A stretch of DNA of 62,998 nucleotides, filler included, from Dugesia japonica (Eukaryota): assembly GCA_001938525.1 (NCBI GenBank). It is 6 parts of 6 records of this genome, joined end to end, with 100 filler letters (N's around TTAATTAATTAA, not from the genome) between each part and the next. Parts side by side here need not be neighbours in the genome. Positions count along the whole stretch, not along the records: positions 1 to 11,924 come from MQRL01530001.1; 5 more parts are not named here. One strand, written 5' to 3'. Shown here in pieces: positions 2,531 through 61,739 of this stretch. Numbering within the stretch: the first letter of the stretch is position 1; each line of letters starts with the position of its first letter. The notes below the pieces were generated by a model, which saw only the letters and a program-made list of their open reading frames with translations, was not told the DNA's origin and did no database searches. The translations under genes and the position numbers were made by a program.

Positions 2531-4176
2531 AGGATAATAAAACGGTTAAATTAATAAGCTCTATATTAATTTACTAGGCATATTCAGTAAATCGGTGAAA
2601 AGTAAAACTGATTTCAGCACTAGTATCATGACACTTCTTTATTTACAAATAGATATTGAAGAGGAAAATTATAATTTTAAAAATCTAAATTCTAAAATAA
2701 CGAGAATCCCAAAATTTACCAGTCATAACTTTTCAAACAAATGTGATTATTATCGTCTTTTTTCGAGCTTGTTCCTTGATATTGTTCACTGTTTTGATTG
2801 ATTTTTGGTTTCGAATGTAAAGCGATAGATCAATGATTTATCAACAGTAATAAAACGCTAAAAAATGTCATTTGGATTGCATTTTAACAGGGTCATAAAT
2901 AACTATTAATAGCACATGCGCTCACAGTTTTAGTCAACTGGTAACAAATACGGCAGTTTTCTCATTTCCAAATATTTTCGCAAATTTGTAAATATGGATT
3001 CCAATGAAATTTGCACTATTAAATGAAAGGTTGGTTTAATTTATATTTGGAAGTTATTGCACCAAGATTTCCAATCATTTGTTCTTTATCATTTACACTG
3101 GACTGTGCAAATAAGTTACGAATACTCTTTAATATCAATCTGATTTTGCTTTAGAATGATAATTAGACTATTTCTTTTTCTTTAAACTCTTATTTTTAGC
3201 TTTCAATGTATTCACGGTTTTTTATGTCTCCTCATGTCTAACAATGAGGATTTTATTTTGGTCCGCCNNNNNNNNNNNNNNNNNNNNNNNNNNNNNNNNN
3301 NNNNNNNNNNNNNNNNNCAGTAGTCGACATAAGAGGAGGTGCTTTGTCATGAAGGAACTGCACCGTATTACTCGAATCTCTTCATTTAAGTGCACCAATA
3401 ATGTAGGATAATAAAACGGTTAAATTAATAAGCTCTATATTAATTTACTAGGGATATTCAGTAAATCCGTGAAAAGTAAAACAGATTTCAGCACTAGTAT
3501 CATGACACTTCTTTATTTACAAATAGGTATTGAAGAGGAAAATTATAAATTCAAAAATCTAAATTCTAAAATAAATCTAAGCATATTTTTCCTTTTTTAA
3601 ATTAATGAACGAGAATCCCAAAATTTACCAGTCATAACTTTTCAAACAAATGTGATTATTATCGTCTTTTTTCGAGCTGGTTCCTTGATATTGTCCACTG
3701 TTTTGATTGATTTTTGGTTTCGAATGTAAAGCGATAGATCAATGATTTATCAACACTAATAAAACGCTGAAAAATGTCATTTGAATTGCATTTTAACAGG
3801 GTCAGAAATAACTATAAATAGCGCATGCGCTCACAGTCTTAGTCAACTGGGAACAAATACGGCAGTTTTCTCATTTCCAAATATTTTCGCACATTTGTAA
3901 ATATGGATTCCATTGAAATTTGCACTATTAAATAAAAAGTTGGTTTAATTTATATTTGGAAGTTATTGCACCAAGATTTCAAATCATTTGTTCTTTATCA
4001 TATACACTGGACTGTGCCAATAAGTTACGAATACTCTTAAATATCAATCTGCTTTTGCTTTAGAATGATAATTAGACTATTTCTTTTTCTTTAAACTCTT
4101 AATTTTAGCTTTCAATGTATTCACGGTTTTTTATGTCTCCTCATGTCTAACAATGAGGATTTTATTTTGGTCCGCC
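2444..4176 (+). repeat. Near-identical tandem duplication (2444-3267 and 3318-4176) separated by an N gap
   Basis: Both copies start cagtagtcgacataagagg and end ttttggtccgcc. They differ by scattered substitutions and a roughly 35-bp indel. Confidence 0.9.
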
Positions 4177-5089
4177 GTTATTTTCTGCTGGATAAAAACA
4201 TATAATTCATAGTAAAATCTATGAGGAAATAATTATTATTTAATAATTTCATACAAAAGAAATTGAGTTAACTGAATATTAATATTGAAACTAATGTAAT
4301 CGTTTATATTTATTTTATCAAACATGTGTTGTAGTAGTTAAATAAATGATGTCTAAAATATTATTTTTGATTTGTAAAAGGAATTATCAATTGAAGATTT
4401 ACTTAACAAAACCATTATGAACTAAGTAATTTTTTCGAGGTAAGCCGCCCCGTGATTAAAGTATGAGAGTAGAAAAAAACATTTGCAGAATTGTATTTGA
4501 CTTAAATTTAGTTTATGCGTCATTATATTTTTAAAAAAGAAAAGAAAAAAAGATACATAGTTACCGTCGACGTGAAATACAAATGAGGTCAGGTAAAAAA
4601 ATCTCAACAACCACCTGCATTTTCGGTACCTTATTTGGTCTTATTCGTTCGTCTGCTCAGGACGTGAGTAGGTAGATAGTGGTACCACACCCCAATTTTT
4701 AAAGCAGTTATCGCGCACCCACTTCCCTCGGGGGGTTCGGAAACACATTACGATTGTGGTAAGAATTTTGTGCAATGATTTTTTGGTTTGTTTTTTTTCT
4801 AAGACTTTTAGGATCAAAAAAAATTTGATCGGATCAAAATTTTTTTGATCTTGTGATGGGTGTATTTTTAATTTTTAAAATTTGTGTGTGTTTGGGTTAC
4901 TAAGGGGTTTTTTAAAAAGTAGGTCAAGTTGAGTTTGTGTGTGTGGTTGTGTGTGTGAAAGAATGGTTTTGAACTCGAGGAGGAGCTGGAGATTTTGGAA
5001 ATAATTTTTTGGGGTTTTTAAGATTTTGTTGTTGTTGGACAAAAATTTGGTCTATACATTGTCTAAAAGACTTATGGGGTGGGATGGAT

Positions 5090-5330
5090 GAAGTTTGCTA
5101 GAAGGGTAGTGGCGCCACTCCACAGTCATATGAGTTATCATGGCTTGTTTTCTGGGAGGCTGTAGGGTTGTAGGACGTTATTGGATTTGGATGATTAATG
5201 TGTTGTTGGAAAGGTAATGTGATGGAAAATATTTTGTATGTCAAATGTGCTTTGATTTTTTATTTTAAGAGTTTTAATTTGATGGATTGTTTTTTGTAAG
5301 TAGTATAAGTGTGTTAAAAAAATTTTCGAG
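5090..5330 (-). pseudogene. Possible clan-CE (Ulp1/C48-like) cysteine protease remnant
   Basis: The minus strand reads HDNSYDCGV at about 5116-5142, like the Q-x-N-x-Y-D-C-G-V catalytic Cys motif. An upstream TLILL...*NS* could be a decayed HWxLL...YDS. Several stops are present. Confidence 0.4.
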
Positions 5331-5714
5331 ANNNNNNNNNNNNNNNNNNNNNNNNNNNNNNNNNNNNNNNNNNNNNNNNNNNNNNNNNNNNNNNNNNNNN
5401 NNNNNNNNNNNNNNNNNNNNNNNNNNNNNNNNNNNNNNNNNNNNNNNNNNNNNNNNNNNNNNNNNNNNNNNNNNNNNNNNNNNNNNNNNNNNNNGTACTT
5501 TTGAGTATTTATCGAGTATTTTTGAGTATGAAGGGTGGGTTTTCATATTTTTAGAGCAGGGAAGAGGGAAGTCTTGTTATTTTTTGGCGGGAAATTTGAA
5601 AAAAATATTTTTTGAAAGGAAATTCAAATAAATATATTTTGGTGGTAAATTTAAAATTTATATTTCAATGGGGGAATTTTTTTAATATTAATATTAAATT
5701 AAATTATTTTTTTT

Positions 5715-5880
5715 GAGAAGACTATATTTATATATGAGATAGGACAGTCTTGATATTTTGCAAGGGACGAGGGGAGTCTCTATATTTAGCATGATATGAG
5801 GCAGTCTTGATATTTTGCATGAGGAGCCTCTATATTTAACATGAGATAGGGTAGACTTGATATTTTTGTAAGATATATTG
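5715..5880 (+). repeat. Three degenerate ~50-bp direct repeats upstream of the ATPase
   Basis: Recurrent ctatattta..atgagatagg..agtcttgatattttgca unit. Confidence 0.7.
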
Positions 5881-6067
5881 AGGCAGTCTAAAATTCCATG
5901 GCATAAGATTCTCAATATATGTGTGTTGCATATGAGTTGCATACCTATTGCATTTATTTATAAAAATCACTTTAAATTTACAGGCATGTGATTTTCAATG
6001 TATGTGTGTTGCATATCTATTGTATACATATTGCATTAACTTTCAATTATAAACAATGTAATAAATT

Positions 6068-6451
6068 ATGAATAAATTAAAGAAAAATCAAGATTAAGAA
6101 ATGACGCAGTCTGTGAAATTGTTGGACCTAGCGGTAGCGGTAAAACATTGTTTGTATGCCAATTATTGAAATTAAAGTATATTTAAGTCTAAATTTAAAA
6201 ACATATACTGGTATAGAGGTGTAGATGAGGAGCATGTATTGACTAAATCTGAATTTTGTAATATTAAAATGAAAATCATAAATGGTTTTGATTCTAATTG
6301 NNNNNNNNNNNNAAGACCTGGTGATGTTATTGTTGTTGATGATCTGTATCAGGAGGCAAACAAAGAAAAAGATTTCAGTAATTTATTCACAAAGATATCG
6401 AGACATCGTAATGTGAATGTGATATTTATTACTCAAAAGCAGAGAGAATAA
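6068..6451 (+). pseudogene. A32/FtsK-HerA-type DNA packaging ATPase (Polinton/adintovirus)
   Basis: Walker A CEIVGPSGSGKTLFV (about 6112-6156), Walker B DVIVVDDLY, and the arginine-finger region LFTKISRHRNVNVIFITQ. Interrupted by a stop or frameshift. Confidence 0.9.
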
Positions 6452-7610
6452 AAGGAGAATACAATCTGGAGTCCTTTATAAATCCAATGACATAAATATC
6501 CAATAACGAAATTTTGTTGTATAAATATAAGTTAGAGAAGAGACTACAAAAAGGTTTTCATGCTTCAATATAAATTCAATCTCTTAGAAATAGTTTGGAA
6601 ATAATATCATTATTAATATTAATACAATAATTATTTTTTAATTAGATATTAAGAAAAGAAGAAATCATTAAAAAGCTTGAATTCGATCCTAAAGTTCTTG
6701 AAAACATGTCATTTTTGATGAAAAACTTGGTAAGGCTTTTTGAACTTGATGCGCCAACAGCAGCTATCGAGATTTATAAGGAAAAAAAGTGAACATTAAT
6801 AATAAATTGAACATTGACATACAATATTAAAGTCCAGAGATAATTAATATAAACAGAACAAATGCTAAAATGCAAGCTCTTTCCATTGCATTTGGTAAGC
6901 AAAGATAGTGTCGTGTGGATAGGAAGAAATGTAACGATAATATATTTTATCATGTAAACTTATTAATTATTAGTTTAAATCCAGTGTGTAATTTCAAACA
7001 ATCACACCAATATCTTGTTTCTTGGTTGTTAAAGACTTTATTTGTCAAGTGTTGTAAAAATTTTGTCTACTTTTATGTGTTGTTTTTTTTAATGTTATAT
7101 AATAAATCTTATTTAATCAAAGTCTTTTTTATTTTAAACATAGTTTTAATTAAATCGTTTAATAAAAAAAATCTTTTTTAAATTACTTTCTTGAATTGTT
7201 GGTAATATTTTTAATTCGGATACGAAATAATTTCTTTCAATATTTACCAGCTTTTCTTCTATAATAAGGTCTAAATTCATTATTAATGAACATTTAAATT
7301 ATTTTTGTATATATTTAACATGCTCCTGTCATGCACAATGGGTTTTTGCAATAAAAAAACTTAATAAATAATAAAAGAACTTAACAAATAATAAAAAAAC
7401 AAATGATAATAACAACGTTTATTTAAATAAAAACAATAATGTACAATTTTAGTCCTAAACAGGACCGGTTATACGTTCACAAATGTTTTTTTGAGAATGT
7501 TTTCTTTTGTAATCTAAATAAAAANNNNNNNNNNNNNNNNNNNNNNNNNNNNNNNNNNNNNNNNNNNNNNNNNNCCAGACTTGATCGAACGAACGATTTT
7601 ATGGAAAAAA

Positions 7611-9840
7611 CTACTTAATACTATCATGACCATATGAGACACTGTTGTTTTCATCTACCCATACGCGCTTATCGTCAGTGTTTGTTAGTGCTAATTTGTT
7701 TGACTTAATGCTAAATGATTGATAATTTTTGGTGGTTATCCTAAATTGTTTCACCGAGACCGATTTGTTCTCATTATAACAGTCAAGGTAAGACTGATGC
7801 AAAATTTCTGTGTTCTTCAATGTTATGCCTTTTGCTCTCATGCTATTCTTATCTCTGAGCAGGCTATAGCATTTTGGCCTCAAAAATACTCATTCTTGAT
7901 GCTTCTTCCCTTTATTTTCGTCTTTGAATTTCTCTATTACTGAGTTCATACTGTTACTATAAAAAGCATAATCTTTATCATAATTCGAAGTATCAAGAAG
8001 CTGATCTCTCACTATATTTGCTGTTATAGTTTCTAGTTTAATATTTTCTATGTCTAGAAAAAATCTATCTGTATCGCCGGCTACAATATTAATTTTACAA
8101 TTATATTCCTTCCTGTATTTGGCCAACTCAATGTACTGAAGTTTGTACATTCTCAATTTTGAGAGGTCAAGTACAGTTTGTCCTATGTAGCTCGGACAAT
8201 CTAAACAAACTATGTCCTTATTGAGAAGAACAACAATTAAATCATCAACCATTTTTGTAGTTTGCTTAAATCCGGCTTTTGATGTATATGTAATCAGTTT
8301 CTTTGCTGAATTACATAAGCACAGATTGATCCGGTTCTTGAGATTATCCACTGAGTTTCTATATAAACTGTTATTTAATAGTTTAAATTAACTTTTCTCC
8401 AATTTTGTTACACAACTTGATCTGAGAATTGTGTTTGTATTTATATAATTCTCAAAAATTGAAGCCTGGCTGAATTTAACTCCTCAATAAACCTCTGTTA
8501 CTTGAACCCCTAAACTTAAATACATATCTAGCAACTCCAGTGCACTACGTAATTGTTATTGGAGTAGTGCGTTAACATTAATTTCTTCACTTTACAACCT
8601 GTAGCTCTTCTATGTTCTACTGCAACCGGTAAATCATTCAAATAATCATGAATCTCTACTGGAATCACCATATTCACCTCTAGAGTGTATCCATATGACA
8701 ATGAATCTAGGTTTGCATTCTTACACTCTTCCAAAATCATGTCTAATCCATCATAAACCCATTCAAAGTTAGCAAAGGGCAACTTTTGACTAAGTGCCCA
8801 GCCATATAGATTATTAATATCTATATACAAAAGGTAAACATTTTCACTAGTGAGGATATGGTGTTTGTTAACAAATGTTAACCCTCCTCTTATACCTCCT
8901 TCAAAATAGGTATACATATCATTAACTTGGAGCAACTCAATTGGTTTTTCTAATGATATCAACGCAGATGCCCATGACATTCCAGGTATTCCGAAAAAAT
9001 TCAACGGCTCCAAATTGTTGTGTGCTAAAGACTTTGCACGGAATCCAACTTGAAATATAAGATCATATAGTCCAGCAAATTTTTGCAACTGAATATTTCC
9101 CGCACCGATAATGCTTTCTCATACTCTTCCCTACTAACTTAATCCCATTTTGGTGGTATTTGCTTTGTTTCTTCCAGAACCTGTAAGCTCGTTGCAAAAC
9201 TGTACGGAAATATCCCCTTTGACTTGGTAATAATTTTATTCTTAAACATCTCTGTAGTCAAAGGTGTCGCTTTTAAGGATTTGACAGCAGAGTCCAATAA
9301 AGACTTTTTGAAATGATAGCTGTCGATGAATTTAATTGTTGTTTTATTTTGTCATACAATTAAACATAGAAAATTTTTGATGTTGTTGGGATGCATGGTA
9401 TTGCCCAATTCTTGAACTTGTTAATACCATACTTAAGGATATGATGAATATCAATTCCTTGTAAATTATGAAAGACCACTGGTAGTTGAATATGCAATTT
9501 TCTGCTTAGGTTGCATTGGTTGCATGCTGCTCCTCTATATTTTCCTGTGAAATGATCATGGTCACGAACGGGATCTTTTATTTTCTTGTTACATAAATAA
9601 AAAATTTTGCAGCTTTGAATTCTTTATCACATCTTCAAAAACGTTATCAGTTTGGAGCAACGGCTCCATTTGATATCTTACAGGTTTTAAATTCCTCTTC
9701 TTCTCCATCAGCAGTTTTTGTTAACCTTTTGAACTCAACATGTACCCCAAATTGAATTTTAACTTGTTTCATTTCTTCTATTGCCTGAAATAATTTTGCA
9801 ACTATTGCTTTTGGTAACATTTTTTCACGACAATTCAATC
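7611..9840 (-). pseudogene. Protein-primed family B DNA polymerase (pPolB) with N-terminal EndoVII-like motif
   Basis: Motifs in order: DPVRDHDHFTGKYRGAACNQCNL; VVFHNLQGIDIHHI; IKFIDSYHF; KGIFPY; GIRGGLTFV; motif A YIDINNLYGWA; motif B KLLNNSLY; motif C AGDTDRF; LRPKCYS, RAKGI, DDKR. Many frameshifts. Confidence 0.92.
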
Positions 9841-9968
9841 TTGAAACATCTATTTTAAATATCCTATGACAGCGATAAAATCTGATTCTATAATTACTCC
9901 GTCATCCACAGTATTATTTGCTGATCCGCCAATTTAATTATTGTATTCCGCTCTTCTGCATCCATAAA

Positions 9969-10560
9969 TTAATGTAACATGATATCGTCATCACTATTTA
10001 TTATAGATCCACCAACTTGATTATTTTCTTCTTCCATATCGATTATCTGATTTAACACGATATCTTCTTCATCAAGTTCATCAAGTACTTCAAAACTGCT
10101 CCAATCATCAGGTTCAATATTGATTGCATCTTCTTCTTGTACATTATTTGATGTTTCTTCTTCCGGTTTCAAATTGATGATTTCTTAAACAATATATTCA
10201 ATTTTTCCAACTGTTTTATCCTTGATTATTATTTCTTCAACATCATCTTCAATGACAATTATTTCCACTGGTTCATCCTTAACTATTATTTTTTCCATCT
10301 TAATTCTCTTATTTACTTGTGCTTCATAAAATTCACTATCCATCTGCCTATCTAATATTAATTTTAATATATTCTTTTTACTTTTACTAAAACAAGACAT
10401 GTGTTTCTTATGTGTCCTATAAAAACTTNNNNNNNNNNNTAAACCTAATACCTTACAATTAGGACACACAAAATAATTTTTTCCATATAACCGTTGGTCA
10501 TAGTATCCTTCCATGATACAATGGCAGTCATCATTGTGACTCGCACTTGCGCAATGGTTG
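9969..10560 (-). CDS. Small viral-element ORFs: an acidic ORF (9969-10172) and a Cys/His-rich ORF (10185-10560)
   Basis: ORF track. The first is D/E-rich with a QVGG motif. The second has CxxC (CPNCK) and an upstream HCAS...DDCHC. Confidence 0.4.
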
Positions 10561-10719
10561 TATAATTTGCAATGTTCTAAAAATAATTTAATAATAATAT
10601 AATAATTTAATAATAATATAATAATTTTAATAATAACATAATGATTTTAATAACATTTTTTTCTTTATAAAATATATAAGCTATGATATTTTTCCAAAAA
10701 AAACATATAAGAGTAGTAA

Positions 10720-10875
10720 TTTTGAATAAAAAATATCATTAACGATGCAATTTTAAATAAAAATCACATTAGCGATGCAATTTTTAATAAACAATCTCAT
10801 TGACGATGTAATTTTTAATAAAAAGTCACAATAGTGATTATATTTTTAATAATAAATCTCATTTGCGTTGCAATT
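10720..10875. repeat. Five ~31-bp direct repeats inside the Polinton-like element
   Basis: Unit approximately tttttaataaaaatc(a/t)catt..cgatgcaa. Preceded by ~18-bp ataatttaataataatat repeats at 10583-10655. Confidence 0.8.
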
Positions 10876-10934
10876 TAAAAAAAAACATATTAGGTAAACA
10901 CATTGAATTATCAACTATTATTTGTTGTACTTCA

Positions 10935-11500
10935 TTAGTTTCATGCTTTTATATCCATACTGATTTCAACAAAGGTACATTAACATTTCCTACAATTATA
11001 GGTTCAACAAGACTACTATAGATGAACATTTACTGATGTAACTTATTGATTTTCGGATTTCTATCACCTTATATTACACCATTCTTCATATGTGCAAGTG
11101 AATAATATTCTTTTTCTAAGCCAAATGTTCTTGACAAGACTTTATCGAATGGAACTGTTTTGATATCATCTTTCAGTGAGAACTGAAATAAATTATTTGC
11201 TTTGAGAGAAATTGTATTAAATATTTCAGATCCGCTTTCTGTTAAATCTTTACTTAGTTGATCTATTTCTGTTATGTATAATTCATCTTTTAACTGTACA
11301 GTATGATAGGTTACTTTAGAATAAGCCATTCTAATTTTTACATTTTTTAATGAAGAATCATATTTAAATAATGAATACATAATAGAAAGCTATCCTTTGT
11401 CCATTTCGTTTGATTTATATCAGATTCCAAATTTATGTGCGATTTTCTCATGTTCAAATGTGAGTACATATTCACAATACAGATTAACAACAAAGAGTTA
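10935..11500 (-). pseudogene. Polinton minor capsid protein (penton) remnant
   Basis: The minus strand near 11030-10950 reads MFIYSSLVEPIIVGNVNVPLLKSVW, matching the Polinton penton motif (F/Y)xYxxxxEPxxVGDxxxPLL(R/K). The upstream ORF 11069-11380 has LSRTFGL, similar to the LxxxLGF motif. Confidence 0.7.
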
Positions 11501-11816
11501 AATAACCTCTGAAAGATATAAAAGCATTCTCATTTTTCTTGACATTCACGGCTTTTGCTTTGTGATTAAGTGTAACATTTTTTTCATTTACTATATTTTT
11601 TGATGTCATTTATTGAATTTTAGAATTGCTATATAAAGGAAATGTTTGATATACAAAGGTAAAATCTAACAATGCAACTTCTCAACTACCATCCCTATAA
11701 ATTGGATTTTGATGCTCAACAATGAATTTCCTAACATTATTCTCCGGATTAATAAGTGGACAGCTATAGTAGTAGGAAAGGAGGACACGAAGACAGAAGG
11801 GGGGCACCAATCCCCC

Positions 11817-11904
11817 GTTGCCATGGCAACCAATGAAGGTCAAGGTCGTTTCCATGGCAACCAATGTATGGCAAGGTCGTTTCCATGGCAACCGCCTTAG
11901 CAAC
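11817..11904. promoter_or_regulatory. Cluster of three RFX X-boxes at 31-bp period with CCAAT and CAAGGTC motifs
   Basis: GTTGCCATGGCAAC at 11817-11830; GTTTCCATGGCAAC at 11848-11861 and 11879-11892; half-site CTTAGCAAC at about 11896-11904. Confidence 0.65.
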
Positions 11905-11924
11905 GGTATCTAGGTCATTGGTTA

Positions 11925-12024
11925 NNNNNNNNNNNNNNNNNNNNNNNNNNNNNNNNNNNNNNNNNNNNTTAATTAATTAANNNNNNNNNNNNNNNNNNNN
12001 NNNNNNNNNNNNNNNNNNNNNNNN
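11925..12024. other. Artificial scaffold-joining spacer (N44-TTAATTAATTAA-N44)
   Basis: The same 100-bp construct recurs five times; the 12-mer has stops in all six frames. Confidence 0.95.
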
Positions 12025-14960: not shown

Positions 14961-15385
14961 CTATCAATTTAAATATAATGGATGTAACGCCACATACATT
15001 GAAGAGACTTCCCGTCATCTCTGCACCAGTGTTCAAGAGCATAATCGAAATAGAGCAAATACTAATTTTGTTGAGCATCGGAGAAAATGTATAAAATCAA
15101 TAGTGTTTTCTGATTTTAAAATCATGTGCAGTGGGTTTAATAATTATTGGGAGAGAGTGGTGTGTGAAGTTTTGTTGATAAGAGCAATAAATCCTAAAAT
15201 TAATGTTCACTTGATGGATTCAACATCGCTCTTAAAATTNTTTTATTGATTATTTATTGAGATTGCATAATTGAAATTATATAATCACTTAAACTTTGTA
15301 AATAGTTTGTTTTAATATTCTTTAATTGCCTGATGATGACGGTTATTCCGTCAAAATTGATCGCAATTAACAAATATTTTAAAAA
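14955..15385 (+). mobile_element. Penelope-like element 3' end (GIY-YIG endonuclease and pLTR)
   Basis: VYQFKYNGCNATYIEETSRHL..SVQEH...EH...ERVVCEVLLIRAINPKIN, followed by a hammerhead motif. Confidence 0.85.
15322..15370 (+). ncRNA. Minimal type-I hammerhead ribozyme motif (G12A mutated)
   Basis: ttaattgc CTGATGA T GACGG ttatt CCGTC AAAA ttga TC gcaattaa: perfect 8-bp stem I and 5-bp stem II. Confidence 0.75.
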
Positions 15386-16598: not shown

Positions 16599-16760
16599 AA
16601 TAATTTTACAATTGGAATTATTGCGATAATAATTGTTGGACGTGACCATTGATCGTTTTTCAGAATTCATTTAAAATAAAAGCTTCGATCAAAAATTGTT
16701 TTCTTGGTTTTTTGATAATAATTTTATATTTTGACTTTGTCTTCGGTAGGAATTGATTAA
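16599..16760 (-). repeat. Copy of the hammerhead-bearing dispersed repeat (core mutated)
   Basis: Reverse complement of the 17775-17932 unit. The core reads aattc CTACCGA A GAC aaa GTC AAAA. Confidence 0.75.
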
Positions 16761-19029: not shown

Positions 19030-19187
19030 TCTCAATAATATAATTACAATTATTGTGAGAATAATTGTTGAATTTAACCGTTTGAGATTTCATTTAAATA
19101 AAGAAAAGGCTTCGATCAAAATAAAATGAATTTCTATAAAAAATACATTTTATTTTGATCGAAGCCTTTTCTTTATTTTAATGAATG
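19030..19187. repeat. Fold-back (inverted) copy of the dispersed repeat family
   Basis: aaataaagaaaaggcttcgatcaaaataaaatg ... cattttattttgatcgaagccttttctttattt. Confidence 0.85.
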
Positions 19188-22103: not shown

Positions 22104-22203
22104 NNNNNNNNNNNNNNNNNNNNNNNNNNNNNNNNNNNNNNNNNNNNTTAATTAATTAANNNNNNNNNNNNNNNNNNNNNNNNNNNNNNNNNNNNNNNNN
22201 NNN
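22104..22203. other. Artificial scaffold spacer
   Basis: N44-TTAATTAATTAA-N44. Confidence 0.95.
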
Positions 22204-28711: not shown

Positions 28712-29240
28712 GGTAAATTAGTTTTATGCTAATTATCGAAATAGTGTTATATTAATACATTTTGACTTACTTTTAACAGCAATGAGTTACATAAATGAGG
28801 TATTATTTATTTTGAAAATTTTTTATAACATAATTTTCTTCGCCATTTTAAAAATAAATTTTAATTCAAAATGTTTTAATAAATTTTATTTATCAGTAGT
28901 TCTCTGCCAAACTTGCAAAAATTTAATATACATNNNNNNNNNNNNNNNNNNNNNNNNNNNNNNGAAATTTTTATTTACAAATTTGTTTAAATTTGCAAAA
29001 AACATGGATATTCAAGGAAATTTTTAAGAAATTAGTCATTGAAAACTTAAATCCATCGAATTCAAATTAGTGGATATATAGTAGCGCATTGGAATGGTCC
29101 CATTTTAAATAATTTTTTTAATAAAATTAACCAACATCAGGAATTGTGTACCACCAGCTAATTTTTTTTAATTATTTTTCTTTTGTTCTTGAAAGAATTG
29201 ACCATAAATAACTTTATAATTTAATTTATATAATTAATTA

Positions 29241-29415
29241 TTTCATTAAAATGAAAGCTTCGATCAAAAATTTTTTCTTAGTTCTTTATAGTATTTCAAT
29301 ACTTTCAAGAACTAAAAAAAAGTTTTGATCGAAGCTTTTATTTTAATGAAATCTGAAATACGACCAATGGTTAAGTCCAACATTTATTGTCGCAATAATT
29401 GTAATTGTAAAAATA
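29241..29415. repeat. Fold-back copy of the dispersed repeat family
   Basis: tttcattaaaatgaaagcttcgatcaaaa...ttttgatcgaagcttttattttaatgaaa, followed by the shared acgaccaatggttaagtccaac...tcgcaataattgtaattgtaaaa tail. Confidence 0.85.
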
Positions 29416-29651
29416 ATTAATTATATTAATATGTATATAGTAAAACTAAAACAACGACTTTTAATTCTACTTGTGATAATTTTTTTATTATTATTTCTTG
29501 TATGCAATTTTTTTCAGTTATATTAATGTTACAAATCAGTATAATTTTCATTAGGTTTATTACTATGATGAATTTGATACCACTCGACTCACAATAAAAA
29601 GTTACCTATACATTGTTTAAAGGACTACTATCGATACTGTATATTTTTAGG

Positions 29652-32789: not shown

Positions 32790-32889
32790 NNNNNNNNNNN
32801 NNNNNNNNNNNNNNNNNNNNNNNNNNNNNNNNNTTAATTAATTAANNNNNNNNNNNNNNNNNNNNNNNNNNNNNNNNNNNNNNNNNNNN
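32790..32889. other. Artificial scaffold spacer
   Basis: N44-TTAATTAATTAA-N44. Confidence 0.95.
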
Positions 32890-35120: not shown

Positions 35121-36611
35121 TTAATTACTGATATTTGCAGTCGCTGTTAATGGTTTCATCATACACTTTTTCTTGTGATAATTATATGAAGCGTTCCAAA
35201 AATAACCCTTGCCGCATTTTTCACAACAATATTTTGCTTGATCTGAATGCTTACCATCAAGATGTTGTTTGAGACTGATTTTCGTCATGAAACGACTTTC
35301 GCAAAAGTCGCATTCAAAAGGCTTTTCGTCTTGCAATGTGTTAGTTGGAGTTGGCGCGACTGCACCTACTGGAAGAGTTTGTGTTAACCCAACATTATCT
35401 GAATTTGATAGAACTGGAAAACTCGGTAAAGTGGGAGCACTAGTTGAATTGGGGATAAAATTAGGAATCACAGAATGAACGGAAGGACTCGTTATTCCAC
35501 CACCATTGACAGTTTGTATGTTGGAAATTAATGTGGGATTTTGCATTGATTTATAATCAATAATTTTTTGCAAAATCATTGCTCGAGCGGAAGCAATACA
35601 TGTACGCTTATGTTCATACATATCAGTTATTATAGTAGTTTTAAAACCACAAAGACATTGATCTGGAATTTGATGAGAAAATACTTTTGGAGATTGCTGG
35701 ATACGAGATTCATTATGATTAAATGAAGTACTGATAGTAGAATAATTGAAATTTGTTTTCTTTCCGTTATTAGAATCTTGTGAATCGTTTAAAGCTAATT
35801 TCCTTTTACTACATTGTTGTTTATGAGTATAAAATTGTGGAGGCCAACGAAAACGTCTACCACAATATTCACACTCGTGTCTAGGAGGAAAATGCAAATG
35901 TTTATGTTGATCAAGAAGACCTTTAGATTTAAAGTTTTTTTCACAGTGCTCACATTCATAAACTTTACCGGTTCGTTTTGGTTGATCTTGACTGTTTGGA
36001 GAAGAAGTATGTATAGATATCGGAAGACATGCTTTTTCAGAATGGGAAGAATAATCCACGTTCATAGCATTAATAGAATAGTCTGTGATAGGAGTTTCTT
36101 TACTTTCATTTTTTACAAGATTTAAAGGATTTGCGTAATCTAATGGCAAATCATCTGAATCGTCATTTTGAATTGGTGTTTGTTCAGTAGAATGTGTAAG
36201 CGGACTACGAGATTCAAATACGGGTTCTGATGGTTCTTTTTCTTCATCTTGTATACTTTCACTTTCTTCGAATTGCTGCTCATCATTGAAGCTGTTTTGT
36301 AAAAGATCTGTAGCAGCAATTGGACATATAATATAGTGTGCCAGAAAATGTGACATGCTATTAAAACACTGATTACAAGTACAAGGAAAAGTTCCACTGA
36401 GGTCATGACATTCATCAAAATGATTTTCAATTTCTTGTTGACTTGAAGACATGTATTTACATTCCGGACAGACGAATCTATTCACAGCAATAAGACTTGG
36501 TGTATTTTCCTGATTCATTGTAGTTGAGGAAGAACTAGAATTTGAATTGGTATGTTTTTCGACAGAATATTGCATAGTTGCAGAATCATTTGGTGATTCT
36601 TCTTTTACTTT
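35121..36611 (-). CDS. Zinc-finger transcription factor, large terminal exon (C2H2 + C2HC finger pairs)
   Basis: 484-aa ORF with 7 fingers, e.g. CEHC..F..K..L..H..LH-PPRHECEYCGRRF....H...C. The frame extends to a TTTAG acceptor near 36612 (KVKEESPNDSAT). Candidate first exon MTDVLNAGSRKM|GT near 38465-38500. Confidence 0.9.
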   Translation of the reverse strand, partial: KVKEESPNDSATMQYSVEKHTNSNSSSSSTTMNQENTPSLIAVNRFVCPECKYMSSSQQEIENHFDECHDLSGTFPCTCNQCFNSMSHFLAHYIICPIAATDLLQNSFNDEQQFEESESIQDEEKEPSEPVFESRSPLTHSTEQTPIQNDDSDDLPLDYANPLNLVKNESKETPITDYSINAMNVDYSSHSEKACLPISIHTSSPNSQDQPKRTGKVYECEHCEKNFKSKGLLDQHKHLHFPPRHECEYCGRRFRWPPQFYTHKQQCSKRKLALNDSQDSNNGKKTNFNYSTISTSFNHNESRIQQSPKVFSHQIPDQCLCGFKTTIITDMYEHKRTCIASARAMILQKIIDYKSMQNPTLISNIQTVNGGGITSPSVHSVIPNFIPNSTSAPTLPSFPVLSNSDNVGLTQTLPVGAVAPTPTNTLQDEKPFECDFCESRFMTKISLKQHLDGKHSDQAKYCCEKCGKGYFWNASYNYHKKKCMMKPLTATANISN

Positions 36612-42864: not shown

Positions 42865-42964
42865 NNNNNNNNNNNNNNNNNNNNNNNNNNNNNNNNNNNN
42901 NNNNNNNNTTAATTAATTAANNNNNNNNNNNNNNNNNNNNNNNNNNNNNNNNNNNNNNNNNNNN
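42865..42964. other. Artificial scaffold spacer
   Basis: N44-TTAATTAATTAA-N44. Confidence 0.95.
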
Positions 42965-43160: not shown

Positions 43161-45629
43161 ATACAACTGCCGAACTTTATGAAACACTATCACTCTTTTA
43201 AGCATATTATATTTGATGAATTTTAGTGCAATTAATTCATTTTAAATAACTTAAGAAAAATTATAAATTTATGAAACTTAAGAAAATTAAGGCAATTAAT
43301 GAAAATTTAACAAATCATGATAAAATTAGTCTACATTTTAATGACGTATTTTTACATTTTAAAAAAATTGCTTATAAACTTAGTATATATTTATTAATAT
43401 TTTATGAAAATCTATAGAAATCATATAAAATCAAGTTATTTAAAAAAATTAAGACTTAAAAAATTTCATACTTAGTTTTATTAGTTTTCTTCATTTCAAT
43501 CAACTAAAATTGAACTTTTGATTCAATACTTTATTTAAAATACAAATAATTCTTCTTTGAAATTTTTCTTGCTTCTTGAACGCTTCTTTCAAAACTTGCC
43601 TTTCCCAATTTAAATTTATTAAATATAATACATTTTTTTAAGTTTATTATTATTTAAAAATATAAATAATATAAATTTTAAAACCTCAAGTAACTAGGAT
43701 AAAGAATTAGTTGGTCATTTATCATCCATCATCACCATCTGCCTGCATTTATTCTTAGACCTCTGCCTAAAACTCGTCTGTCATTCTGTTTGCACTTATA
43801 TTTGTTATGTTTATTCTTACTTCTAAAATTCAAAAATCATCATTTCAAGTAATTTTTGGAAACATTTCCTTCACTTTTATGAAACAGTTTGATTAAAATG
43901 AATAAAATAGTATACCTTATTCCTTCTCCATCTCGTTATTTTCTAACTTNATATTATAAAGATTTTATNTGATGGCTTCTATTTTAACGATATAAATATT
44001 AAAATTCAACCAAGCATGTTATACTTGCATTACCCAATCAAATTCATACATGTATACACACCTAAATTTATATCACTTGTTTGGCTTTATTCTTGTTAAT
44101 AATAATAATAATAATAATAATACTAATAAAAATAATACTAATAATGATAATAATAATAATAATAATAAATTTCGGTCTTGGTCTTAGTAATAATAATAAT
44201 GTAATTTCCACTTATGGTATCTGTTTATATTTTTATATGGTATGGCATATTCTTTACTGTAAACTTCATAAATCATTTATGAAATTAGTAAAATTAATGA
44301 AGAACTAACTAACATTAGGGTATGAATTATTGTGCTTAATGCATATTATATTGGTATAAGTCATTATTGTATGTTGTATTGAATCTAGTGTATTACTGCT
44401 TAAATTTAAGTGTTTTGTTATGAATTAATGAAAGCTAGTATATTATAATGAAAATCAGTCTATTTAAATGAAAATTTGATTATACTTTTGAGACATTAAT
44501 GCCCATTTATGAGAAGGGTGGATAGACGATGATGAGAGATGTATAGTTTGTGGGAATGGATTTATGGTAACTCTTAATAATGCAACACATAAGCTGAATA
44601 GGACTTTTAAGCAATCATTTGTATTAAGATTAAACCCATGTGTTTTAGTAAAATCATTGGATATAGTAAGCAAGTAGTATTTTATCACAGTGTAAGACCA
44701 AATCATTGGAATTGAGTAGATACTGAAAGCTAATATAATGCAGTGAACTAGTGAACCAATAATTATGTAATATTTTATCAAAACGTTTGATTGAATCAGA
44801 AAATTCAAATAAATTATTTAATGTATTGCAATAATTTATTGATATTTTAATAGTTTTAATTTATTATCAATGTAATTTTATTATTTCTTTTTGATTTTCA
44901 GTTTTTCAATGTAAATAGTTTGTAAAGTTTTTAGCGCTTATTTTTAAAAGTAAATCAAAATTTATATTACAAAAATCATTAAAATTTGAAATTTATTCAA
45001 ACAATCATAAATTTAAAATAAAATATTAAGTTTTGAAATTTAATGAAAATGAATTAAAATTTAACAGAAGAAATAAATTATTTGGAATTTTTAGCTATAG
45101 GTCCTTTGGACCATGTATAGATAACTTTTTATTCTGATTATTATGATGCAAAATTTTAATTCATGCGATTAGTTTTGACTGAGAAAATTCTAAAACATTC
45201 AGTTACAGTTCACTACTAACTGTTCAGCAGAGAACACAGCATATTTATATAATAAACCCTATATAACAAATGAAGAACTTTTAATAGTAAATTCAATCTT
45301 ATACGATAATTTTTGACTGAGAAATAAATTATTTAAATTTTTAATTAAAAACTTTGACCTTGATTTTTATATAGAAGAAAGCATTTTCAGAAGTTTTGCA
45401 TGAATATGTTCTTGATTTACTTTTTAATTCTCTATAAATGGTATTAGTTTCGAGTTGAAATCATCTAAAACACTAGAGGGAGGTAGAACCTTTTCTGAGA
45501 GAACCAAGCATATANNNNNNNNNNNNNNNNNNNNNNNNNNNNNNNNNNNNNNNNNNNNNNNNNNNNNNNNNNNNNNNNNNNAAGTTCAATTTCTTTGATA
45601 ACATATTTTTTTGAATATCATGTATCGAT

Positions 45630-45800
45630 TTCAATTATTGCGAGAATAGTTGTTGGACTTAACCACTGATCGTATTTGAGATTTCATTAAAATAAAGGCT
45701 TCGATCAAAATTTTTCTTTCTTTTTTTATATTTATTTTTTTCAATTCATAAAAAAGACAAAATGGAAATTTTAAAATACTTTCAAGAACCAAAAAAAAAT
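45630..45800 (-). repeat. Copy of the dispersed repeat family, without the ribozyme core
   Basis: caattattgcgagaatagttgttggacttaaccactgatcgt...cattaaaataaaggcttcgatcaaaa. Confidence 0.8.
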
Positions 45801-48107: not shown

Positions 48108-48155
<48 letters not shown>

Positions 48156-49100
48156 GTTCATTTAAAAAAAAACTTCTATCAAAATTTGTATTGAAATAGT
48201 ATTGATATTTTATCAATAACTAGAAAAACAACAAGAAACTTTGACCAAACCTTTTAATTTTATGTAAACTTCAAGTTGTCAACATATAAATTGATATCAT
48301 TTAAGTTTTCTTAATTGAATAAAAATAAAAATTGCGCAGATTTGCTATATTATTTCGTTTGATCAATGCAAATAGTATTATATTTTATTAGAGTACCGTC
48401 TTATAGTTGTGATTTTTTCTTAATTTAATTATGTCTTTCTTTGTGTATAAGATGCGATAATAAGAAATGTGTATCTTTTGAAAAGTTAACATAATTTGTC
48501 TTCTTATGTTGTAGATTGACCCCAGTCACCTAAAAGAATACCAANTATTTAATTGTATCAAACATTTATACCGAGTTTTTCAAGCTATGCCTTAATTAAG
48601 ATATTGAGTCTTTTAATATGTTTATTTTGAGTTCTCGTGTTTATTAATTATTTACTTGGGATAATATTTATCACTGGAAAATTAATAATAATTATGTTTT
48701 ATAATTTTTTAAAATGATTTAAGCTATAAAAATTTGTAAACAATAATAATTTACAATAATTTATAAATTATAATAGTTTATAAATTAATAAAAATTGGTA
48801 AACAAATTATTTAAATTAAATTGAAAACTTTTGATAAAATTAAAATTGGGCTGATTTACTCAATAGTATTTAATTTATATAAACGGTCTACAAATAAACA
48901 ATCACAATTTTTTTATTATGTTATATGTTATGTTATAAATAATATAAGTTTTTAATATTCTAATTTACAGTCAGTTAAAACAGTTTAATTTACAAAACAA
49001 ACAATATTGAGCCAACATTTAAAGCTGAAACTACCGTTAAGTAGAAAAGAAAAACGTTATGCAAAATTTCTTCAAAGGCAAATAACACTATTAATGAAAC

Positions 49101-52008: not shown

Positions 52009-52108
52009 NNNNNNNNNNNNNNNNNNNNNNNNNNNNNNNNNNNNNNNNNNNNTTAATTAATTAANNNNNNNNNNNNNNNNNNNNNNNNNNNNNNNNNNNN
52101 NNNNNNNN
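52009..52108. other. Artificial scaffold spacer
   Basis: N44-TTAATTAATTAA-N44. Confidence 0.95.
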
Positions 52109-59589: not shown

Positions 59590-59657
<68 letters not shown>

Positions 59658-59689
59658 ATTTAACACGCTATTTAATTAAATATTTATTT

Positions 59690-59732
59690 AGCACAGCAAG
59701 TTTCGACAGCATATCTGTCAGCTTCAGGAAAA
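59690..59732 (-). ncRNA. Hammerhead motif in the inverted Penelope pLTR (A9C)
   Basis: CTGAAGC T GACAG atatg CTGTC GAAA cttg. Confidence 0.6.
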
Positions 59733-61132
59733 CTGTTTAAAACGCAGAATAGAGTATATATACTCAAGTTCCGCATTATGCAATCGATTATGTAATAATC
59801 TCAATAAAATTCCAATTAATTAAAGACATTCAATAAAGATTTATTGATACCAGTTTGGACATTAATTTTGGATCATATGATCTAATCATCAATGCTTTGC
59901 ACATGATTCTTTCACAATAATCTTTTAAATTTCTGTACAGAATTTTGAAATTATTAATATTTATAACTGAATTACACTGAATATTGTGTTCGGCAATATT
60001 ACTGTAACTACCTAACCGACTATGTTCCTGAATCCTTTTAGAGAGATGACGGGAAGCCTCTCCAATGTAAGTGGCATTACACCCATTACACTCATATTTA
60101 TAAATAAGATTAGAAACCAATNCACAAGGAGTCTTAAATTTATTACTGAACGAATATTGAATTTTTTCAATTTTTTTCTAAATTATATGAATTCTTTACA
60201 CTCGAATACAAAGTGCACAACTAAAATGGAACGTAATGGTAAATTTCCTTTTCTTGATTTATTATTAGAAAGGAAATCTGACCAAAATGAGACAGAAATC
60301 TACCGAAAGCCAACTGATACTGGTTTATATACAATACCTGGTAGTTTCTGTGGATCTCGATATAAATTTAATATGATTAAAGGTTTAATATATAGATCTT
60401 GGATTGTCTCTTCTTCTTTTTCGAAGTCGTGTGTAAATATTCAAACCTTGAGTTTTTGTTAAATAAAAATGAGTATTCTAAGAAAGATTAACGTACGAAA
60501 CGATTGATAAAATTATTCTAAATACGAATAATAATTTAAACGATAAAAATGTTATTAAAGATCCAGATAAATCTAATAAAATTGAGAAAAAATTAGTTGT
60601 TTTAAATATTCAGTATTCTGAGGGCTTTAAAGATTTTAAAAATGGTTTGCTAAAATATTCAGTAAATCTTCCAAATTTTCAGATTGTGTCACGGTCTTTT
60701 AAACTTATAAGTGCGTTCAGTAATAAGTCTAGACTCATTGTGGATTGGTTTCTAATCTTATTTATAAATATGAGTGTAATGGGTGTAATGCCACTTACAT
60801 TGGAGAGGCTTCCCGTCATCTCTCTAAAAGGATTCAGGAACATAGTCGGTAAGGTAGTTACAGTAATATTTCCGAACACAATATTCAATGTAATTCAGTT
60901 ATAAATATTAATAATTTCCAAATTCTGTACAGAAATTTTAAAAATTATTGTGAAAGAATCATGTGCAAAGCATTGATGATTCGATCATATGATCCAAAAT
61001 TAATGTCCAAACTGGTATCAATAAATCTTTATTGAATGTCTTTAATTAATTGAAATTTTATTGAGACTATTGCATAATTGATTGCAAAATGCGGAACTTG
61101 AGTATATATAATCTATTCTTCGTTTTAAACAG

Positions 61133-61175
61133 TTTGCCTGAAGATGACAGATATACTGTCAAAACTTGTTGTAAT
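61133..61175 (+). ncRNA. Hammerhead motif in the Penelope pLTR (G12A)
   Basis: ttgc CTGAAGA T GACAG atata CTGTC AAAA cttg TT gtaa. Confidence 0.6.
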
Positions 61176-61739
61176 AAATAAATATTTAATTAAAAAGCGT
61201 GTAAAATTATTTATAAATAGATTGCCATTATTCTTTAACTTTTTTAATAGTAATAATATCAAATACTGTAAATATGTATTCAAGCTATTTATAATATTTT
61301 ATAACCAATATTTATTTGATAATAATAGCTTATTTCATAAAATTAATGGCTTACAATAATTGTAAAATATAGTAAAATAATAAAATAGTTTTTCAAATAC
61401 TCAAAATAATTTAGTTTTTAATAACCCTTACAGACCTAGAGCCCATTGCAATGTACAATAATTTGAACGTTTATTTTGAAGGTTATTTTTCGTTTCATTA
61501 TCACTGGGACCTTTGGCACATCATAGTGCACAACTTATTTATTAATCAATATATTCACATGTGTTTCTCACCCGTGTTGTCCCACTTAACAGAATTCTAT
61601 AAAGCATATTTTTTTCATCCAAAAATAAAAAGGTTAATTAAAAATTATAAATAACTCACAAATTTTTATTAAATTTTTTACTTAGAATAAGATTAAGACT
61701 TAAACTCCATGTGTAGTCATATTTATAAACAAATACTTT

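Follow-up and report, generated by a model that had tools for sequence, protein, structure and literature searches.

A tandem array of predicted RFX sites in the probable end of a Maverick-type element nested in an older Polinton

Three RFX-type X-boxes, repeated with a period of 31 bp, lie within the final 110 bases of the first scaffold of the window (the whole stretch of 62,998 nucleotides that was analyzed), very probably in the end of a second mobile element inserted into the penton gene of an older one. We place the array in the terminus of this younger element because homology to penton proteins stops at 11765 and an AGTAGT end at 11768 reads away from the older genes. The body of the younger element lies beyond the scaffold end and contributes no gene to the scaffold; its end motif suggests that it is that of a Maverick. 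Taken as a whole, the reading that we favor, namely that a Maverick terminal repeat carries host-factor sites acting as an inward promoter/enhancer, draws on analogy with viral terminal repeats and has, in our judgment, a slightly better than even chance of being correct; if the nested terminus is taken as given, a promoter role for RFX appears fairly likely. The window joins six unrelated scaffolds by identical 100-base linkers (11925–12024, 22104–22203, 32790–32889, 42865–42964, and 52009–52108), so adjacency across the linkers carries no meaning.

The older Polinton and the break in its penton gene

On sequence similarity, the first scaffold carries a decayed Polinton that, like known Maverick/Polinton elements, has pPolB and penton genes; a putative ATPase-like fragment lies beside them (Table 1). 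The pPolB pieces and their homolog P0009 match the Pfam families DNA_pol_B_2 and Endonuclease_7, and the ATPase-like fragment has a weak match to Pox_A32 (E 0.0098) that lies under the curated cut-off. By eye, no integrase, major capsid protein, or protease was recognized in the translated frames of this older element, and neither its own ends nor its terminal inverted repeats (TIRs) were identified. A frame at ~5100–5250 on the minus strand contains a motif recalling Ulp1-type cysteine proteases, with no Pfam match. The AGTAGT at 4333 and the GC-richer, strongly G/T-skewed stretch that follows at 4560–5330 may mark the left end of the old element; the AGTAGT itself, one of 20 such sites, is not established as that end. 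The older element shows no X-box array, with three weak sites in the interval 4300–11767.

The penton family received no name from Pfam or PDB sequence searches and was identified by fold search only. A model of the penton homolog P0005, built from 93 natural homologs that were picked from 152 by length and N-terminal motif, reached a pLDDT of 94.8 and matched the mavirus penton (Foldseek E 1.5e-8; Z 13.0, rmsd 6.5, 233 aligned), as well as penton or vertex proteins of PBCV-1, Sputnik, and adenovirus. By the fold of this model, 10892–11765 is a single jelly-roll minor capsid (penton) gene.

Alignments to the N-terminal part of the penton, obtained for 51 of the 152 homologs, end at 11765 in 41 cases, at 11762 in nine, and at 11786 in one. 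A conserved N-terminal motif is present in 112 of the 128 homologs of at least 300 amino acids, and its place is directly before the 11765 point; in the window this motif is missing, and AGTAGTAG stands in its place at 11768. This sequence points toward the array and away from the older penton–pPolB block, and it is of the (AGT)2 type, which among vertebrate Mavericks is the end motif met most often (PMC8097293). AGTAGT occurs 20 times on the plus strand in 60,229 non-N bases, which gives a probability of ~0.002 for an occurrence within 3 nt of a given point. The AGTAGTAG end coincides both with the penton break and with a step in base composition from 29% to 52% GC: the 157 bases from 11768 to 11924 have a GC content of 51.6% versus 29.3% in the adjoining 157 bases to the left, and the most GC-rich of the 52,805 N-free windows of 157 bases overlaps them. 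The GC island that had been described in AT-rich DNA is thus real.

An inward AGTAGT end next to a candidate 6-bp target site is what this fragment shares with published Maverick/Polinton (adintovirus) TIRs of the 5'-(AGT)2 type (PMC8097293). The window differs in presenting one end only: it holds no second copy of 11768–11924, and the scaffold stops at 11924. X-box arrays in such ends were not found in the literature searched. That the break falls roughly one read length into the repeat suggests that the family is young and multi-copy.

The sequence-only reading had put the array at the head of the viral element, as an upstream control region of its penton–pPolB block. Both parts of this assignment fail, since with good confidence the array belongs to a different, nested element, the insertion of which truncates the penton gene and which points away from that block. 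The alternative offered at the same time, a terminal-repeat structure, agrees with the anatomy and with the AGTAGTAG end.

Table 1. Features of the first scaffold and of the linker that follows it, in positions of the window
Feature	Position	Strand	Basis or remark
Broken packaging-ATPase-like gene, Walker A present	6091..6448	+	Read with X at stops
Broken protein-primed PolB (pPolB) gene	7581..10514	-	tblastn pieces, 34-78% identity
AT-rich 31-bp tandem array, 5.2 copies, between penton and pPolB	10718..10876		TRF
Broken penton (minor capsid) gene with stops and frameshifts; 5' end lost to insertion (probable)	10892..11765	-	tblastn of P0004/P0005, 43-48% identity
Candidate left copy of a 6-bp target-site duplication, AGCTAT	11762..11767	+	Putative; right copy outside the scaffold
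Terminal 157 bp of the younger element, putative Maverick/Polinton TIR, ended by the scaffold edge	11768..11924	+	AGTAGTAG start, GC step, penton interruption
(AGT)2-type end motif AGTAGTAG, reading into the array	11768..11775	+	Motif position
31-bp tandem duplication, 2.5 copies, with X-box, CCAAT, and CAAGGTC	11816..11893	+	TRF: period 31, 91% matches
X-box 1, GTTGCCATGGCAAC, perfect palindrome	11817..11830		Identical to the palindromic consensus in PMC3414849
AGGTCA-type nuclear-receptor-like motif cluster	11837..11848	+	Positions by motif search; factor assignment putative
X-box 2, GTTTCCATGGCAAC, one mismatch in left half	11848..11861		Exact pattern match
X-box 3, GTTTCCATGGCAAC, one mismatch in left half	11879..11892		Exact pattern match
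RFX half-site TAGCAAC	11898..11904	+	Four such sites in the whole window
Artificial scaffold linker (44 N, 12 bases, 44 N), non-biological	11925..12024		Same linker at 22104, 32790, 42865, 52009

Composition and origin of the X-box array

The three X-boxes described earlier, one perfect palindrome and two further copies 31 bp apart, were confirmed at 11817, 11848, and 11879, and the whole window contains no other exact match to GTTNCCATGGNAAC. With up to two mismatches allowed, five matches are found in the window against 1.06 expected, a number reached in one of 100 shuffles. The proposed RFX consensus match stands insofar as all three boxes fit a published consensus, but the strict human RFX1 form is matched by box 1 only; for boxes 2 and 3 the match is to the looser Drosophila pattern, read on the minus strand, and box 1 fits both patterns (PMC3414849). 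The accompanying motifs are likewise where they had been reported, with CCAAT at 11807, 11830, and 11861 (the latter two overlapping X-boxes 1 and 2), CAAGGTC at 11841 and 11872, and the TAGCAAC half-site to the right of box 3; ATTGG lies at 11917. A ROR-like half-site is predicted at 11907, and no TATA box was found in the fragment 11768–11924. The AGGTCA-type cluster presumably combines an NR5A-like with a DR0-like motif. Folding of the X-box-bearing fragment gives a z of -2.05 because of the palindromes in it, and the fragment does not form a long hairpin of the kind found at the L010 terminus described below.

The array is a single unit that has been amplified. Spacers 1 and 2 have 14 of 17 bases in common, against 4 of 17 for spacer 3, and the boxes are identical to one another at 13–14 of 14 positions although the third spacer is unrelated. 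As the 31-bp spacing reflects tandem duplication, the three boxes are not independent of one another, and the argument that they lie about three helical turns apart is weak. Helical phasing was rejected as evidence altogether, since in 7 of the 16 bacterial-looking control loci (see below) the spacing also deviates from a multiple of 10.5 by no more than 1 bp. A common origin with the second 31-bp array, between penton and pPolB, was likewise rejected: at the best rotation its unit is identical to the X-box unit at 13 of 31 positions, which is the level of shuffled sequence (mean 13.2). That second array, 900 bp from the X-boxes, could be an upstream control region of pPolB.

X-box and CCAAT occur together in the window as they do in the MHC class II X–Y enhanceosome, a parallel that had been drawn from the sequence. 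In MHC-II promoters, the X-box and Y-box (CCAAT) are separated by a conserved spacer, and the RFX5 complex has its context in vertebrate immune regulation. Such a spacer is not found in the window, and the overlap of two CCAAT motifs with X-boxes makes an MHC-II-like RFX/NF-Y reading doubtful. The HLA class II X-box is mentioned in PMC5760533.

Tandem X-box loci in other contigs

Among bacterial and archaeal genome contigs, the strict pattern taken from the window's array matched no locus, and a looser tandem X-box pattern, in which AGTAGT was not included, matched 18. Sixteen of these are gene-dense and bacterial-looking. The other two, L010 (WPAE01000165.1) and L016 (WPAE01000113.1), are without long open frames (0.00 versus 0.77–1.00); they lie on short contigs of the same metagenome-assembled genome and look like eukaryotic carry-over. 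From the first base of AGTAGT onward, the two align with 92% identity over 426 nt, and their flanks differ; as this alignment indicates, they are two insertions of one element, which is unrelated to that of the window. None of the remaining 16 loci has an AGTAGT end within 250 nt.

The L010/L016 terminus resembles that of the window in the X-box stretch only. It contains two full X-boxes and one partial one at 21-bp spacing (cores at 117, 138, and 159), together with CACGTG three times, TGACG twice, and CAAGATGGC three to four times, which we take to be USF/TFE, CREB, and YY1 motifs, respectively. Neither a pPolB nor a penton match was found in L010 or L016, and it is by the end motif only that they would be classed as Mavericks. 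That another, unrelated element pairs this end motif with X-boxes beside other host-type motifs speaks for the host-factor reading. Because L010 and L016 are one family and were selected for tandem X-boxes, they count as one independent case and not as a frequency.

The first 120 nt of this terminus (L010 1843–1960, L016 2390–2508) fold into a long hairpin (z -7.1 for L010) that encloses the three CACGTG motifs and whose 3' arm reaches into the first X-box core. L016 additionally contains a second, inverted copy (441–602 versus 2063–2223, 86%) of the inner subterminal sequence, which is without the X-box part.

Tandem copies of the same palindrome in the 16 bacterial-looking loci indicate that it is not exclusive to hosts with RFX. 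Given these copies and the 7 of 16 loci that are phased, neither the palindrome nor the phasing proves use by RFX. At L002, L008, L012, L017, and L018 (~10001–10055), tandem perfect GTTGCCATGGCAAC-type palindromes appear to be intergenic in bacteria, and two Myceligenerans species among them show 31–32 bp spacing; these sites are possibly operators of a bacterial regulator. The X-box segment had no match in the plasmid collection; 11 matches in the phage collection, all at E 0.5, were discarded as chance, as was a single Rfam match at E 0.55.

Possible function, precedents, and other features of the window

In the scheme that we propose, the penton gene of the older, decayed Polinton would have received a younger Maverick/Polinton-type element, and the array would form part of the younger element's TIR. 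The (AGT)2 end may serve protein-primed replication, with the dense block of host transcription-factor sites just inside it arising by tandem duplication of the 31-bp unit. Host RFX, CCAAT-binding, and nuclear-receptor-type factors are predicted to bind there, and the terminus could thereby drive the genes of the element itself as a promoter/enhancer that faces inward. We infer both RFX binding and a transcriptional effect at the array. Precedent comes from RFX1 and RFX3, which bind the D sequence of the AAV ITR as well as the enhancers of HBV and polyomavirus and affect transcription (PMC5760533). The AAV2 D sequence and the EF-C/EP sites of HBV and polyomavirus likewise represent RFX-type sites in a viral terminal repeat or enhancer (PMC5760533), but they are single sites with demonstrated binding, whereas the window presents three predicted ones (two with a mismatch) in an integrated element of an invertebrate-like genome. 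RFX motifs are also enriched close to sites where transcription starts (PMC10530576). Box 1 is identical to the palindromic consensus of ciliary-gene promoters (PMC3414849, PMC10530576), although ciliary genes typically have one X-box near the start site and the window has a tandem array in a mobile element.

Of the alternatives, all of which we consider unlikely, the one that survives best holds by analogy that the X-boxes are auxiliary elements of a replication origin, where RFX would help to load the terminal protein–polymerase as NFI and Oct-1 do on adenovirus ITRs. The boxes lie 50–125 nt from an end of the protein-priming type, and in Mavericks, too, the end motifs are expected to enable jumping back (PMC8097293). 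Adenovirus ITRs similarly have a core origin with host-factor motifs just inside a protein-primed terminus, the NFI and NF-III/Oct-1 sites that aid replication falling within the first 88 bases (PMC6410123). The adenovirus sites, however, are for other factors and stand at a fixed short distance from the end (NFI at nt 23–36; PMC6410123), whereas the X-boxes are 50 nt from the end in the window and 117 nt from it in L010/L016, and the role reported for RFX on viral DNA is transcriptional (PMC5760533).

Barely less probable is that the array has no RFX function and is either a palindrome amplified by slippage within the terminal repeat or a site for a protein of the element itself. Plain tandem duplication as the source of the period, the unrelated 31-bp array nearby, and the predominance of bacterial-looking matches in the scan (16 of 18, with 7 of the 16 helically phased) all fit such an explanation. 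Against it, the palindrome has been kept while the third spacer has not, and an unrelated AGTAGT-ended element has an X-box array of its own beside host-type motifs.

We give distinctly less credence to RFX as a repressor that silences the integrated element and releases it under replication stress or DNA damage, in the manner of a prophage switch. In its favor, RFX1 reportedly represses its own gene in a way that responds to replication arrest and is said to occur at the PCNA promoter, and multiple X-boxes are found at damage-induced promoters of yeast. RFX1 and RFX3 carry both repression and activation domains (PMC5760533), and RFX regulates the cell cycle in some fungi (PMC10530576). The neighboring CCAAT and AGGTCA-type motifs, however, would fit an activating promoter equally well, and silencing of planarian Polintons is reported to proceed via PIWI/piRNA (PMC8532177).

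It is very unlikely that the segment represents the terminus of a transposon other than a Polinton, or a chimeric join formed where the scaffold stops. Just 157 bp are present before the scaffold ends, which leaves the second end and a complete target-site duplication out of view, and the L010 hairpin and the inverted inner copy in L016 could point the same way, as long hairpin termini and inverted inner copies are also met in other repeat classes. A break falling on (AGT)2, with its chance of ~0.002 in the window, and the independent occurrence of this end in L010/L016 argue against this, as do the plasmid, phage, and Rfam searches, in which chance-level phage matches were the most that appeared and no Rfam family was found. 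That the array is the promoter of the penton–pPolB block of one single element deserves next to no credence: the penton alignment does start 50 bp from it, and both minus-strand genes lie downstream, but the AGTAGT boundary cuts into the conserved N-terminal motif of the penton, and the end motif is directed away from these genes.

To return to the promoter/enhancer reading, a broader and rather improbable extension of it would have tandem X-box arrays arise repeatedly and by convergence in the termini of animal Mavericks, as a switch for waking the element in cells where RFX is on for cilia or sperm flagella, or for releasing it under replication stress. If this were true, ciliated and flagellated cells would offer access to the germline and release at epithelial surfaces, and both the missing trigger of endogenous Maverick expression and the cell types to examine would have been named. 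In planarians, Polintons silenced by PIWI/piRNA are reported to open as cells differentiate, with gains of H3K4me3 and RNA when neurons and epidermis form (PMC8532177). This agrees loosely with ciliated lineages; the accessible passages of PMC8532177 and PMC10558129 contain no mention of RFX.

Host-factor sites in viral terminal repeats are already known. No report of X-boxes in Maverick termini was found in the full-text literature searched, a scope outside which most subscription papers and repeat-database reports fall, nor was a paper on control of Maverick expression through the termini found there. The only paper found there to combine Polinton with RFX is, in its accessible part, unrelated (PMC11464507), and the only one with Maverick and RFX apparently concerns human accelerated regions. 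Terminal motifs of the X-box kind are not described in the accessible passages of bioRxiv 2023.08.22.554363 and PMC8502044, and no Maverick terminal DNA with X-boxes is contained in the accessible supplements of PMC8502044 (in part), PMC8097293 (end motifs only), PMC10748475, PMC11131425, and PMC8532177 (one probe row). Mavericks are widespread in animal genomes, and their particles had not been observed at the time of PMC8097293, which gives coordinates for 1,345 vertebrate elements with TIRs. An activating role of RFX would point to specific cell types; should RFX not be the activator, the locus would still be a clean example of one element inserted in another, and would caution that motifs clustered next to viral genes may be part of a different element.

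Several further features of the window stand apart from the array. An open reading frame with a doublecortin (DCX) domain lies at 249–614 on the minus strand, and its nearest Atlas clusters are eukaryotic, most commonly from Mollusca or Chordata. DCDC2-type genes are reportedly RFX targets in humans, and the X-boxes were considered as a promoter of this gene; the idea was rejected, with no X-box within 615–2400 and the array 11 kb away inside a mobile end. On the same scaffold, an assembly gap separates two near-identical stretches (96–97%), 2444–2998 and 3318–3907, a duplication that may stem from haplotypes or from the assembly itself. Another scaffold contains an intact 484-amino acid C2H2 zinc-finger frame (35121–36575, minus strand). 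The host, which on the DCX frame and a C2H2 zinc-finger frame looks like an AT-rich animal, may be flatworm-like. A 489-nt inverted duplication (59646–60134 versus 60731–61219, 94%) surrounds a retroelement-like fragment, has a related copy at 14962–15047, and presumably resembles a Penelope-type structure. Finally, a dispersed family of short, MITE-like repeats with internal inverted arms occurs at 16641–16730, 19092–19170, 29240–29430, 45628–45763, and 48155–48220.
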